Source of the DNA: Escherichia phage C6
Reading direction: 5' to 3' (one strand)
Length of the DNA: 64,000 nt
Sequence record: MW679410.1
A program made the translations under genes and the position numbers. The notes under the pieces were generated by a model, which saw only the letters and a program-made list of their open reading frames with translations, was not told the origin of the DNA and searched no databases. Shown here in pieces: positions 40,198 to 50,519 of the stretch (position 1 is the first letter of the stretch; each line of letters opens with the position of its first letter).

Positions 40198-40198
<1 letters not shown>
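40001..40198 (-). CDS. Hypothetical early protein, about 65 aa
   Basis: ORF; start placed at the Met overlapping the pseT stop; ORF-track start is 40228. Confidence 0.4.
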
Positions 40199-41398
<1,200 letters not shown>

Positions 41399-41402
<4 letters not shown>

Positions 41403-41881
41403 ACACCGAGTTCCTTATAAAGTTCTTCACGGCAAGTTTTAAGGGTTTTACCTGATTCGTAAGCAACACTTTCAGGAACATCGCCAAGGGTTACAGCGGA
41501 TTGCATTTGGCCATGGCGTTTAGCCGCGTATTCAAAACTTTTCACTAGCTCACGAATACGTTCTTTTTCATTGTACTCTTCAATGAATTCAGGGTATTCC
41601 CAAACCGGACGCATCATACGATACCACTGTTGGATGGTAATATAATTACTTCCATCCAAATTAATAATCTGCGAAGGCTCAATAGACCCTGGAGCATAAA
41701 AAGTTACCTGTCTTACTACATCAATACCGTCCACAATAGCCCAAGCAAAATTGAAAGTTGCCTTCTTTTCAATTGGTGTACTTGCACAGGACCCTAATTT
41801 TAAGAGCTTTTGTAATGCGGGAGATTTAATACTTGAAATGTATTCAGGCTTAGCCACAAAACTGTTATCACGTAAAGTCAT
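41399..41881 (-). CDS. Hypothetical early protein, 160 aa
   Basis: Start moved to the Met at 41881 (GAGG upstream); the ORF-track Met at 41917 lies inside the -10 box of the promoter at 41916-41945. Confidence 0.55.
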
Positions 41882-41915
41882 AATAATTTCCTCAAATTTT
41901 ATAATCCGTAGGAGC

Positions 41916-41945
41916 ATTATACTCTGCTCCCAAGAGTTTGTAAAC
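41916..41945 (-). promoter_or_regulatory. Early promoter for the 160-aa ORF
   Basis: Minus strand GTTTACA, 17-nt spacer, TATAAT; inverted repeat GGAGCA...TGCTCC spans the -10. Confidence 0.55.
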
Positions 41946-42048
41946 TACTTTCCAAAAAGACCATGCATACACATGCTGAACACAATCCCAAAACAAAAGA
42001 ATGCAGCGCCAAATCTAACGGCATCCCAACCGCAAACACATGTCTCAA

Positions 42049-42339
42049 TCATTTGCACTTCTCCTCTTTTAGTCCAGAACGATAATAACATAACATAGAT
42101 TTCTGGTCTTGTACATATCTTTTTACGTCATTCAACCAAATACGATGTTCTTGGGAATCTTCAAATGGCATTCCAACCCAAGCTTTACCATCGATTACCT
42201 TAACCTGCCATTTAACATTATGTTCGGCAATAGGTTGTGGCCATGAAGGATGCAGTTGTTGCTTAGGCACTACAGGGATGTCCTGGGTGCATCCAACTAA
42301 CAAGCCAATAGATAACACTACCACAGATAATTTAATCAT
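42049..42339 (-). CDS. Outer-membrane spanin (o-spanin) lipoprotein
   Basis: 96 aa; signal peptide with lipobox LLVGC then Pro-rich periplasmic domain; directly downstream of and overlapping the i-spanin gene. Confidence 0.8.
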   Translation of the reverse strand: MIKLSVVVLSIGLLVGCTQDIPVVPKQQLHPSWPQPIAEHNVKWQVKVIDGKAWVGMPFEDSQEHRIWLNDVKRYVQDQKSMLCYYRSGLKEEKCK

Positions 42340-42689
42340 TCTGTAATGCTCCTGAAGTCTTCTGTAAAGGAATCGAAGGACTTGTTGATTTGTTTTTCGA
42401 CCAGTCCTGGCTTACTTGCCACCACGTGCGCCTTCTTCGAATCTTTACGGAGCTTTTCATTTTCTACCTTAATTTTATCCATTCGGGCATTCATTTCAGT
42501 AGTACGGAATTCAATATCCGAGTATTGACCACGAAGGTCCTCTACAGCTTCAGCGTTCTGTTTGGCTGTTTGCTGGGTAGTTTTCAGTTCTTCAGTAAGG
42601 GTATCAATACGACTTGATTGATACGAAATAAAACCGTAAGCACCTACTGCAATGGCTCCAGCTAAAAGGTAAATACTTAATTTAGACAT
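42336..42689 (-). CDS. Inner-membrane spanin (i-spanin)
   Basis: 117 aa; N-terminal transmembrane helix (IYLLAGAIAVGAYGFISY) followed by a charged coiled-coil-like domain. Confidence 0.8.
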   Translation of the reverse strand: MSKLSIYLLAGAIAVGAYGFISYQSSRIDTLTEELKTTQQTAKQNAEAVEDLRGQYSDIEFRTTEMNARMDKIKVENEKLRKDSKKAHVVASKPGLVEKQINKSFDSFTEDFRSITE

Positions 42690-43177
42690 TTGGTAATAAT
42701 CTCGATGATGTCATCACGTGACAGGGAATTAATAAGAACCGTTTTAGGATTTTCGCACTGAATTTTGTACGTTTCGAACATAAAACACAATTCTTCAGCG
42801 GTATGGTAAGGACTTGAAATGCCGAGGCGATTAAACTTGTCGCTTAATGGGTCGCAAATCAAATAGAAAGTGATGCCTGAGATTTTAACATTAGGTTGGC
42901 TAATATTAATGAACACCTCGGCATCGTACTTGGAAAGGTTGTTTTGGAGAAACTCAACCATAGAGTTAACAGCTTCTGGCATGGCTTCACGCTTTTCTTC
43001 TGCATAACGGGTAGAGTATTCTTTTTGCTTGATTTTCTTTTTAGCATTTTTAGCTAAAGTAACACGAAGATCGGTCAGGTAACCTACTGCACGAGAACCT
43101 TTAAAAACTTGGATACCGTCAGTAGAGTCACCAAAAGCCTTAACAACCATTTCGTTAGTAATCATTTGCATATTCAT
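42677..43177 (-). CDS. Hypothetical early protein, 166 aa (position and size of T4 alc; identity not confirmed)
   Basis: ORF upstream of rnlA with GAGGAG RBS and an early promoter at 43209-43237. Confidence 0.55.
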   Translation of the reverse strand: MNMQMITNEMVVKAFGDSTDGIQVFKGSRAVGYLTDLRVTLAKNAKKKIKQKEYSTRYAEEKREAMPEAVNSMVEFLQNNLSKYDAEVFINISQPNVKISGITFYLICDPLSDKFNRLGISSPYHTAEELCFMFETYKIQCENPKTVLINSLSRDDIIEIITKCLN

Positions 43178-43208
43178 TTTGTTTTTCTCCTCATTAGTTG
43201 GTAAGTCT

Positions 43209-43237
43209 ATACTAACACATCATGAGGAGATGTAAAC
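43209..43237 (-). promoter_or_regulatory. Early promoter upstream of the 166-aa gene
   Basis: Minus strand GTTTACA, 17-nt spacer, TAGTAT; leader ...AATGAGGAGAAAAACAAAATG. Confidence 0.55.
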
Positions 43238-44385
43238 TACTCTACCACAATTTCTTTCAAATATTTTTCAGGGATTTGGGCTTTATGGTTTTTCAAGAAC
43301 ACCGAGTTAATCTGGTCTACAACCGTATCATAATTAATACCGCCTACGTACGCCTGCATAAGAATAGAGAACAGCCCTGGGAAGTCCTTAAGGATTAACT
43401 GACCCGTAACGGCATAGTCTTTACGGTCGCGGCCCTTGAGTTGGGAATATGCTGCTTCCAACAAAGCCAATGATTGTTCTAGGTAATCTAGATGGATACG
43501 TTCAAAGGCATCGATTTTCTCGATAGCAAAGGAATCCGTACTGAACAGACCACGGAGGTCATCGGTTCCACCGGCCACTACAACTTCAAACAAACGTTCG
43601 TTATTGTTAATGGAATCTTTGGTATGGTGCAGTGCACTGTACCAGGCAGTTTTGAGTTTAAAGAACGTACCATCTTTCAGTACAAAGATGAAACCTTCAA
43701 TACCCTCTTGTTTACGGATGTTTTCTACGAAATCACCTTCAGTGAGGTCATAGCTTTCAACCAAATGCTTACGCAGCGCGCCATCTTTAAACAGTTCAGC
43801 ATATGGAATATATTCACCTGTTTCATTATTACGAACGTTCAACAGGATGAGGTTTGTTTCTTGGTACGCCAGCACGATACGGTTGGTAGGTGCAACATAT
43901 TCAAGGTTGCAGGTATACCCAGCTTTGGTGATTTCTTCTAGACGTGCGGCAAAAGCCTCGTTCTCAGGGAGACGAAGGAAACGTAAAGAATCATACACCA
44001 TTGATGAATGGATAGAGCCTTTAGATTTAACAGAAAGATACTGACGGTCCATGAATGTAGAAATCAGAGAACCATCTTCCTTAGCCATTACGAGGTCGAT
44101 ATTTTCTGGCGACAAATCCAGACCGATAGTCATAGGGTTTTCGTCGAGGTTAAAGAACTTTTGCATAGGACGAGCAGCAATACGTACTGGACCATTCTCG
44201 TCCATTTCAAACATAATGCCTCGACACTCTAGTGCGCCGTCTTCCAACCAATCACTGTACGATGCATAGTTATAACTAAAGATGCGATAGTTGACTCCTA
44301 GCGCACTCTGAAAGTCTTTAAAGAAGAACTTAGATTTAGTCGAGTTTTTAACCAAGGCCATCAAGTTATCATATAATTCAATCAT
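43237..44385 (-). CDS. rnlA: RNA ligase 1 (RnlA, gene 63)
   Basis: 382 aa; position between denA and the alc-position gene; size close to T4 Rnl1 (374 aa); nucleotidyltransferase-like lysine in ...DLVMAKEDGSL. Confidence 0.85.
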   Translation of the reverse strand: MIELYDNLMALVKNSTKSKFFFKDFQSALGVNYRIFSYNYASYSDWLEDGALECRGIMFEMDENGPVRIAARPMQKFFNLDENPMTIGLDLSPENIDLVMAKEDGSLISTFMDRQYLSVKSKGSIHSSMVYDSLRFLRLPENEAFAARLEEITKAGYTCNLEYVAPTNRIVLAYQETNLILLNVRNNETGEYIPYAELFKDGALRKHLVESYDLTEGDFVENIRKQEGIEGFIFVLKDGTFFKLKTAWYSALHHTKDSINNNERLFEVVVAGGTDDLRGLFSTDSFAIEKIDAFERIHLDYLEQSLALLEAAYSQLKGRDRKDYAVTGQLILKDFPGLFSILMQAYVGGINYDTVVDQINSVFLKNHKAQIPEKYLKEIVVE

Positions 44386-44795
44386 TGCTTTATCCTATGT
44401 TGGGTATTCCAAGGTGGATTAAATTTCTTTATGAACATTGGCTCTTCAAGAGACATGGTCTCAACTGACATAGTTCCAAGTTCGTTAGTCATCGACAGAT
44501 TAAAGCACTGCCGTGCATAGAACTCTACCTTTTTACCTGCCATTAATGCTTCATGAATCAGAATGGACTTGGTCGAATCCGACGTTTGGTCCTTACGATT
44601 AATAGCGGTTCGGTAGTAGTTGATGCGCTTACGAAGATTTTTAGTCTTCCCGATGTAGACTAGTATATCATCAACCGCTATAGCATATATGACATTTTGT
44701 TTATTTGGTACTGTGAGCGGAGCAATGCTGGCGTCATCTTGGAGTTCTAGGGTGACGTACTTGATAAAGCTAAATTCGTCTGCGATTTCTTTCAT
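44382..44795 (-). CDS. denA: Endonuclease II (GIY-YIG family)
   Basis: 137 aa; VIYAIAVDDILVYIGKTKNLRKRINYYR (GIY-YIG-like); position and size match T4 denA. Confidence 0.85.
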   Translation of the reverse strand: MKEIADEFSFIKYVTLELQDDASIAPLTVPNKQNVIYAIAVDDILVYIGKTKNLRKRINYYRTAINRKDQTSDSTKSILIHEALMAGKKVEFYARQCFNLSMTNELGTMSVETMSLEEPMFIKKFNPPWNTQHRIKQ

Positions 44796-50489: not shown

Positions 50490-50519
50490 ATAGTATCACT
50501 ACCATAGCCTGGTGTAAAC
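50490..50519 (-). promoter_or_regulatory. Early promoter cassette
   Basis: Minus strand GTTTACA, 18-nt spacer with imperfect inverted repeat, TACTAT; leader ...AAGGAGAATAAAATG. Confidence 0.55.

Follow-up and report, generated by a model that had tools for sequence, protein, structure and literature searches.

In bacteriophage T4, the i-spanin and o-spanin genes pseT.3 and pseT.2 follow the 'separated' spanin architecture, the two genes alone complement a lambda Rz/Rz1 defect, and o-spanins of this type need disulfide isomerisation of their two C-terminal Cys residues (Kongari et al. 2018, PMC6139136). The T4 gene order is pseT.3, pseT.2, pseT.1 and pseT. A further related system is the promoter-early stem-loop (PeSL) cassette (Arbiol et al. 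2010, PMC2839356; Comeau et al. 2014, PMC4122927), for which an early promoter consensus of TTTACW-N17-TAYWAT was given in the PST/T4 pair (PMC4122927) and whose stem-loops were shown in RB49/phi1 to terminate or attenuate transcription (PMC2839356). Here, the corresponding locus was analysed in a stretch of 64,000 nucleotides (nt) from Escherichia phage C6 (sequence record MW679410.1), referred to below as the window, where a 35-codon open reading frame (the small ORF) lies on the minus strand between the o-spanin gene and a promoter with a stem-loop. The surrounding region is 90-98% identical to many Dhakavirus genomes, and the source is a JS98-like T4-type phage. The small ORF is very probably a real protein-coding gene.

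Coding evidence for the small ORF

The original prediction described a 35-codon ORF that opens at an ATGA overlap with the o-spanin stop codon, has a Shine-Dalgarno (SD) sequence eight nt upstream and ends at the -35 box of the next promoter, and all of these statements were borne out when the sequence was re-checked. The ATG (42052-42050) overlaps the o-spanin TGA (42051-42049), AAGAGGAG at 42068-42061 lies 8 nt 5' of this ATG, and the frame closes with TAG at 41947-41945, the promoter -35 box beginning one base past the TAG. As a correction to that text, the maximal ORF of this frame is 48 amino acids (aa) long and opens at an upstream ATG at 42091. Since the 48-aa extension is interrupted by TGA in Gaprivervirus relatives, the ATGA start is the conserved start. 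Both the SD and the ATG lie within the last o-spanin codons (K-E-E-K-C-K, then TGA).

For the comparison, 34 verified loci from Dhakavirus and Gaprivervirus were read directly, giving 24 distinct DNA versions and 17 peptide alleles of the small ORF; the added sequence diversity was drawn from GenBank phages, and scans with the promoter cassette gave only 7 IMG/VR and 2 metagenome contigs. No in-frame stop was found in any of the 24 versions, while the other two forward frames contained 39 and 59 stops and the three reverse frames 10, 5 and 48. The variable sites were distributed over the codon positions as 15/15/27 (each of 35), and third positions were variable in 26 of 33 cases against 28 of 66 first and second positions (hypergeometric p=5e-4). 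When the alignment columns were permuted, all 24 sequences stayed open in 13 of 5000 permutations (p ~0.003). The pooled Nei-Gojobori ratio of non-synonymous to synonymous divergence (dN/dS) was ~0.24 (dS 0.76, dN 0.18) and 0.22-0.26 inside each genus, a rough value, since non-independent pairs were pooled over 35 codons with evident recombination. The sole indel among the versions was the loss of one whole codon (codon 4), and the length was accordingly 34-35 codons.

The conserved pattern of the peptide was MIE.C..G[WS][DG]...[FL]....FCFGI....C..G[LI]FGK. Synonymous changes were found at invariant residues: Gly8 and Gly22 were spelled with all four Gly codons, I2, I23 and G34 with three codons each, and E3, C5, C20, F21, C28 and F33 with two each. 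Read from the aligned versions, these features mark a protein under purifying selection. The check proposed in the original prediction, namely the pattern of synonymous versus non-synonymous change in related phages, was thus carried out and points to coding, and stops or frameshifts in relatives, which had been named there as evidence against a gene, were seen in none of the 24 versions.

A tblastn search recovered the full-length peptide, 57-100% identical, from 86 of the 87 phage records. The single partial match, in CUA3, was caused by N-masked sequence, and the interpretation of CUA3 as a disrupted copy was dropped. At the DNA level, 83 records covered at least 80% of the query, so copies with conserved DNA and a broken ORF are not evident.

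The small ORF is not new, since it is annotated in relatives and belongs to a described family. The window peptide matched PHROG 23289 at E=1.5e-15, with residues 1-35 on profile positions 1-35 of 35, and other alleles matched it over the full length at E=3e-23 and 1.6e-17. The window copy is a plain member of this family of unknown function and shows no differing feature. A coding sequence (CDS) for a hypothetical protein is annotated at this place in LHE83 (WEY10244.1, 100% identical to the window peptide), CLB_P2, dhabil, fDHCT2, MN04, ABTNLsp5, pEC-M719-6WT.2, WG01 and MX01, and it was left out of the annotations of JS98, IME08, AnYang, VR7, VR26, Bp7, UGJNEcP4 and SP18, among others. What is new here is that coding is established by comparison, that the small ORF is the equivalent of pseT.1 in its slot and that it behaves as a hypervariable cassette; none of this contradicts PHROG 23289.

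Two annotations in relatives look like errors. In UPEC01 (locus L037, 717-851), a 44-aa CDS was called in another frame over the small ORF and the promoter, and in ESCO10 (OM386655.1) the genes under this region are labelled 'thioredoxin'.

No family match for the peptide was found in Pfam or NCBIfam, no PADLOC defence or counter-defence model matched three of the alleles at E<=1, and the 48-aa maximal ORF as query gave no candidate in a collection of 5.8 billion proteins. A HMMER search of 1.84 billion representative proteins yielded a single true relative (a 34-aa allele) and one repetitive false positive, with no homologue adjoining spanins outside Dhakavirus and Gaprivervirus; the family therefore seems to be confined to these two genera. 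Neither a paralogue nor another SD-preceded hydrophobic ORF of 25-60 aa was found on the minus strand of the window.

Mosaic alleles in the pseT.1 slot and the predicted product

The small ORF was compared with T4 pseT.1 (75 aa), which opens at the same ATGA overlap. The two genes share the slot and the initiation site, with the SD in the o-spanin K-E-[DE] codons, and the context AAAGAGGATAAATGTAAATGA precedes pseT.1 in Tequatrovirus loci just as it precedes the small ORF. In contrast, pseT.1 is about twice as long, its product is not hydrophobic, and the two are not similar in sequence: with two PseT.1 proteins as queries, tblastn gave no match to the window in or near the small ORF. Derivation of the small ORF from pseT.1 by decay was rejected on this lack of similarity. 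In a metagenomic T4-like contig (L009), the o-spanin gene is followed by ATGA, a 72-aa pseT.1-like gene, TAG and then the same promoter and stem-loop, so the 35-codon ORF occupies exactly the slot of pseT.1 while being unrelated to it in sequence.

In T4, RB69 and many other T4-like phages, this slot is filled by the unrelated pseT.1 of 72-76 aa. Relatives of pseT.1 were found in 818 phage records, Tequatrovirus, RB69-like, Klebsiella and Serratia phages among them, and among the matches listed the identity was either at least 80% (coliphages) or below 60% (Klebsiella, Serratia and others), with none at 60-80%. The pseT.1 gene and the small ORF appear to be mutually exclusive.

To describe the variability of the small ORF, its divergence was compared with that of the flanking sequences. 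Nucleotide diversity was 0.20-0.24 in the small ORF, 0.09 over the 70 nt of the o-spanin gene that precede it and 0.035 in the promoter. Within genera, dS was 0.73-0.75 in the small ORF and 0.14-0.31 in the spanin genes (2-5x), and dN was 0.16-0.20 and 0.01-0.02, respectively (~10x). Between the window and MX01, the o-spanin gene, the promoter and the next gene were 97-100% identical and the small ORF 60-80%. The reverse was observed between MX01 (Dhakavirus) and SP18 (Gaprivervirus), where most of the o-spanin gene was 40-60% identical and the small ORF 97-100%. In addition, some alleles were mosaic: that of AnYang resembled the window in its N-terminal part and JS98 in its C-terminal part, and that of Bp7 resembled MX01 in its N-terminal part (one difference, V11I) and the window in its C-terminal part.

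The i-spanins of the two genera have unrelated transmembrane (TM) segments, yet they are paired with the same small-ORF alleles, and the alleles are independent of both the i-spanin type and the downstream gene. This sharing of alleles regardless of spanin type fits cassette shuffling and argues against an allele-specific pairing with the spanins. The simplest reading of the aligned sequences is that old, diverged alleles have been swapped by homologous recombination, with the o-spanin 3' end and the promoter cassette as anchors.

The product of the small ORF is predicted to be a membrane peptide. Its grand average of hydropathy (GRAVY) was 1.15, and AlphaFold2 without an alignment gave a single helix over residues 3-33 with a mean per-residue confidence (pLDDT) of 83.8. 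The small membrane peptide suggested by the original prediction is supported at the level of prediction, by this helix and by a best 19-residue Kyte-Doolittle mean of 1.84. The N-terminal tail is acidic (E3, D10), in some alleles without any basic residue (MIESCIDGSDVILFG...), the hydrophobic core covers approximately residues 14-34, and the C-terminal Lys is invariant. Judging from the acidic tail and this Lys, the peptide most likely inserts in the inner membrane in an N-out/C-in orientation.

The invariant residues were C5, G8, F19-C20-F21-G22-I23, C28, G31 and F33-G34-K35. A single conserved helix face of the GxxxG-like interface type was considered and not adopted, as the invariant positions are spread round the helix. 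A bacterial lipoprotein was rejected: the lipobox [LVI][ASTVI][GAS]C calls for L, V or I at -3, which the peptide lacks, as it does a basic n-region; the residues before C20 and C28 are F-F and F-S-M, or G-F-A in other alleles.

Holins and antiholins have one or more TM domains and a charged hydrophilic C-terminal tail, and their genes lie by the endolysin gene or in the lysis cassette. The peptide resembles the small membrane proteins of lysis (holins, antiholins and the phiKT gp28 'disruptin') in its size, its hydrophobic helix and its nearness to lysis genes. A holin or antiholin was rejected for a peptide of one helix ending in a single Lys, encoded among spanins, alc and pseT: unlike holins and antiholins, it has no charged C-terminal domain, no dual start and no endolysin or holin neighbour. 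It also differs from the phiKT 'disruptin' in being neither cationic nor amphipathic and in the presence of intact spanins.

Spanin genes, promoter cassette and neighbouring genes

On the minus strand the order is rnlA, alc, pseT.3, pseT.2, the small ORF, the promoter, two hypothetical genes and pseT. The coordinates of all features are collected in Table 1.

Table 1. Features of the spanin and small-ORF locus in the window.
Feature	Position	Strand	Basis
rnlA	43237-44385	minus	
candidate early promoter TTTACA-16-TAGTAT upstream of alc	43209-43236	minus	9/12, consensus match alone
alc	42677-43177	minus	
pseT.3 homologue, i-spanin, 117 aa, N-terminal TM segment, no Cys	42336-42689	minus	PHROG 739, annotation in relatives
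pseT.2 homologue, o-spanin, 96 aa, lipobox LLVGC, two C-terminal Cys	42049-42339	minus	PHROG 812, annotation in relatives
Shine-Dalgarno AAGAGGAG, inside o-spanin codons K-E-E, homologous to the SD of T4 pseT.1	42061-42068	minus	
small ORF, 35 codons + TAG, MIETCVCGWDAVRFGAAFFCFGIVFSMCMHGLFGK	41945-42052	minus	PHROG 23289, coding signal, helix prediction, mosaic alleles
strong sigma-70/T4-early-type promoter TTTACA-17-TATAAT	41916-41944	minus	11/12 consensus positions
8-bp stem-loop UGGGAGCA-GAGUAUAA-UGCUCCUA over the -10 box	41909-41932	minus	centroid -12.3 kcal/mol
PHROG 4482 gene (unknown function), next downstream	41399-41881	minus	likely start ATG at 41881 (MTLRDNSF...)
PHROG 2364 gene (MKELLENY...)	41103-41402	minus	
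pseT	40198-41106	minus	

The i-spanin ORF matched PHROG 739 'Rz-like spanin' (E=3.5e-37), has an N-terminal hydrophobic segment and agrees with T4 pseT.3 in position and length (117 aa). The o-spanin ORF matched PHROG 812 (E=2.4e-43), with the lipobox LLVGC at residues 13-17, the Cys residues in ...MLCYYRSGLKEEKCK and the gene adjacent to that of the i-spanin, as in the T4 type. In relatives the two are annotated as pseT.3 or Rz-like spanin and as pseT.2 or Rz1, and together they have the properties of a two-component spanin of the T4 PseT.3/PseT.2 type. The original prediction had described an i-spanin and an o-spanin overlapping in the usual way; the identities stand, and the overlap amounts to only 4 nt (ATGA). 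The layout is the T4 'separated' architecture and not an embedded or overlapped pair of the lambda or P2 type.

Variation of the o-spanin end was observed in two groups of relatives. In vB_EcoM_005 (loci L015 and L019; L015 1501-1692), a 99-nt deletion cuts the o-spanin after residue 63 (...GMPFEDSE*) and recreates the ATGA overlap, with the small ORF intact. The truncated o-spanin is without both C-terminal Cys residues, which are essential in T4 PseT.2, and an assembly artefact is possible in this 155-kb record. In VR7 and VR25 (L030 and L016; around L030 695-710), a 1-nt deletion just 5' of the small-ORF ATG changes the o-spanin end to ...RCHD* and the overlap to 8 nt, and the small ORF is unaffected.

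The promoter and stem-loop behind the small ORF form an almost invariant cassette among the relatives (pi=0.035). The stem starts 13 nt past the small-ORF stop and overlaps the -10 box. The cassette stretch matched 728 T4-like phage records at 1-4 places each, the exact cassette sequence occurs once in the window at <=3 mismatches, and among the loci it precedes any of three alternative downstream genes. In a metagenome contig (L023, OBRI01002173.1, ~425-456), the same cassette was found straight after an unrelated ORF (...VDLWDGAVDVE*), an arrangement consistent with a mobile or recurrent cassette. Being intergenic, recurrent and near variable ORFs, with a promoter and a stem-loop, the element fits a PeSL cassette; it shares with PeSL cassettes the near-consensus promoter, the stem-loop, the recurrence in other T4-like genera and the variable modules alongside, and the shuffling of the small ORF within conserved flanks agrees with the PeSL model. 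It differs in that the stem-loop overlaps the -10 box and in that the upstream recombination anchor is the o-spanin 3' end and not a second PeSL. There is no T-run after the stem, a terminator scan made no call at the stem-loop, no Rfam match was found in 41300-42800, and the late-promoter motif TATAAATA is absent from the minus strand of 41300-44600.

In TH41 and UPEC01 (L036 and L037; ~815-840, equivalent to window 41909-41932), the cassette hairpin is exactly reverse-complemented, with GGGAGCATTATACTCTGCTCCC for GGGAGCAGAGTATAATGCTCCC. This flip of the loop destroys the coding-strand TATAAT, so the downstream gene would need read-through from the spanin and small-ORF transcript. In the whole window, eight minus-strand early-type promoters of the form TTTAC[AT]-N16-18-TA[TC][AT]AT were observed, with -35 boxes at ~54781, 51513, 50807, 50518, 41944, 35157, 24619 and 10062, and seven of the eight are preceded by G (GTTTAC). 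Several of them have an inverted repeat around the -10 box, e.g., GGCTAT...ATAGCC at 50518, an indication that PeSL-like cassettes form a family in this genome.

For the PHROG 4482 gene, the 172-aa maximal ORF starts at ATG 41917, within the -10 box. The PHROG 4482 profile sets in at residue 13, and ATG 41881 has an SD (GAGGAA) before it, so the true product is probably 160 aa; relatives annotate the gene both ways, as a 519-nt and as a 483-nt CDS. Among loci L001-L041, the module behind the promoter is the PHROG 4482 gene, a different gene (MKILWYVENANN...) or none, and where the module is absent the PHROG 2364 gene directly follows the promoter cassette. In G8-like Tequatroviruses (L012), a homologue of the PHROG 2364 gene lies after pseT.1.

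Proposed role, alternative explanations and significance

Taken together, we consider it probable that the small ORF is a translated accessory gene of Dhakavirus and Gaprivervirus that encodes a membrane helix, stands in the pseT.1 slot and is an exchangeable cassette. It would be transcribed as the last cistron of an alc-pseT.3-pseT.2 unit, from a transcript that probably starts at the candidate early promoter (43236-43209) upstream of alc. The ATGA overlap and the good SD make re-initiation possible, and translation would be coupled to that of the o-spanin, with ribosomes that finish the o-spanin re-initiating at ATGA. The helix of 34-35 residues would then insert in the inner membrane, N-out/C-in, where the invariant Cys, Gly and Phe residues probably act on a partner in the membrane, one not allele-matched to the spanins. 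The mosaic patterns suggest that ancient alleles are exchanged between the o-spanin 3' end and the promoter cassette.

Several points weigh against this reading, in addition to the roughness of the dN/dS value. The start signals alone prove nothing because they are partly dictated by the o-spanin C-terminal codons, so the case for a gene rests on the body of the ORF, and even there the codons nearest the 3' end might owe part of their constraint to a role as upstream promoter sequence. Insertion into the membrane and its topology are predicted from a peptide of 35 residues, and with the invariant residues not on one face, a simple helix-packing interface is not obvious. The high diversity of alleles could come from selection for it and not from neutral cassette import. 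Finally, neither ribosome profiling or mass spectrometry of the small ORF nor expression data for JS98-like phages were found in the literature; MIETCVCGWDAVR is a predicted tryptic fragment of the peptide.

The original prediction had raised a link of the peptide to lysis as one possibility. Such a lysis accessory would partner the spanin complex, or a holin or antiholin, in the inner membrane and tune lysis timing or spanin activation. In every locus examined the small ORF lies directly after the o-spanin gene and overlaps its stop, the product is predicted to be membrane-embedded with C5, C20 and C28 invariant, and T4-type o-spanins depend on Cys disulfide isomerisation (PMC6139136), so that Cys5 could act together with the two essential C-terminal cysteines of the o-spanin. 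However, the T4 spanins suffice alone in complementing lambda Rz/Rz1 (PMC6139136), and T4, RB69 and hundreds of relatives carry the unrelated, non-hydrophobic pseT.1 in this slot. The T4-type spanin genes are not part of a lysis cassette, with alc, rnlA and pseT as neighbours. ATGA overlaps are the norm between neighbouring, functionally unrelated genes throughout this region, so the overlap of the small ORF is no special sign of functional coupling. No co-variation of the small ORF with a particular spanin pair was found either: the same allele stands beside i- and o-spanins whose DNA is only ~40-60% identical, and identical spanins are accompanied by different alleles. The HMMER search described above gave no spanin-adjacent homologue outside the two genera. 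The link to lysis is therefore not supported, and a lysis accessory is unlikely; a role in lysis is possible, while a dedicated one is not indicated.

As a special form of this idea, the peptide might be an 'antispanin' or spanin chaperone, whose periplasmic Cys5 would form a mixed disulfide with one of the two essential C-terminal Cys residues of the o-spanin, itself translated immediately beforehand from the shared mRNA, and so delay or license the isomerisation by which the T4-type spanin complex is armed. Contacts between conserved residues of the peptide and conserved spanin parts are conceivable, but the independence of the alleles from spanin type speaks against it and nothing positively supports it, making it quite improbable.

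It is also very unlikely that the act of translation and not the peptide matters. On this view the ORF would serve for coupling or attenuation, leading ribosomes from the o-spanin stop up to within 13 nt of the hairpin and so affecting termination or read-through or shielding the mRNA. The stop codon abutting the -35 box, the short distance to the stem, the terminating or attenuating PeSL stem-loops of RB49/phi1 (PMC2839356) and the almost fixed ORF length of 34-35 codons are in line with such a device. Against it stand the purifying selection on amino acids (dN/dS ~0.24), the fixed motif with synonymous variation at invariant residues and the slot content of T4 and L009, which is an unrelated gene of 72-76 codons; moreover, a pure spacer would not retain a hydrophobic helix.

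A chance ORF, the second option of the original prediction, or a decaying remnant of a recombination that removed pseT.1, open because its start is imposed, is highly improbable. The SD and the ATG are indeed dictated by the o-spanin codons KEEKCK-TGA, many curated annotations omit the small ORF, and the 48-aa query found no candidate among 5.8 billion proteins. However, these options are rejected by the 3-periodic substitution (third positions, p=5e-4), the low dN/dS, the codon-sized indel as the only one, zero stops in 24 versions despite ~20-24% nucleotide diversity (permutation p ~0.003), the missing similarity to pseT.1 and the existence of the PHROG 23289 profile. A feature of the opposite strand, either the 115-aa plus-strand ORF at 41751-42098, which is open in the window, or an antisense RNA, has next to no credibility, since every reverse frame is stopped in some relatives, such an ORF would cross the promoter, the end of the o-spanin gene and the start of the next gene in antisense orientation, all annotated genes here in T4-type genomes are on the other strand, and there is no Rfam match.

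The current understanding of lysis is unchanged by these findings. Small phage ORFs are often missed or dismissed, and here a case of 35 codons is shown by comparative evidence to be under selection, so the annotation of the window and of JS98-, VR7- and SP18-type relatives should include it. Dhakaviruses are used in phage-therapy cocktails, and a putative, early-made membrane micro-protein is therefore worth knowing about.

The biological interest lies in the replacement of pseT.1 in exactly the same translationally coupled slot, and in a sharply bounded island with ~20-40% divergence in nearly identical DNA, whose alleles are common to two genera. The locus is thus a compact example of cassette shuffling beside a PeSL-type promoter, and if selection maintains the allelic diversity, specificity in a phage-host or phage-phage interaction could be determined by the peptide.

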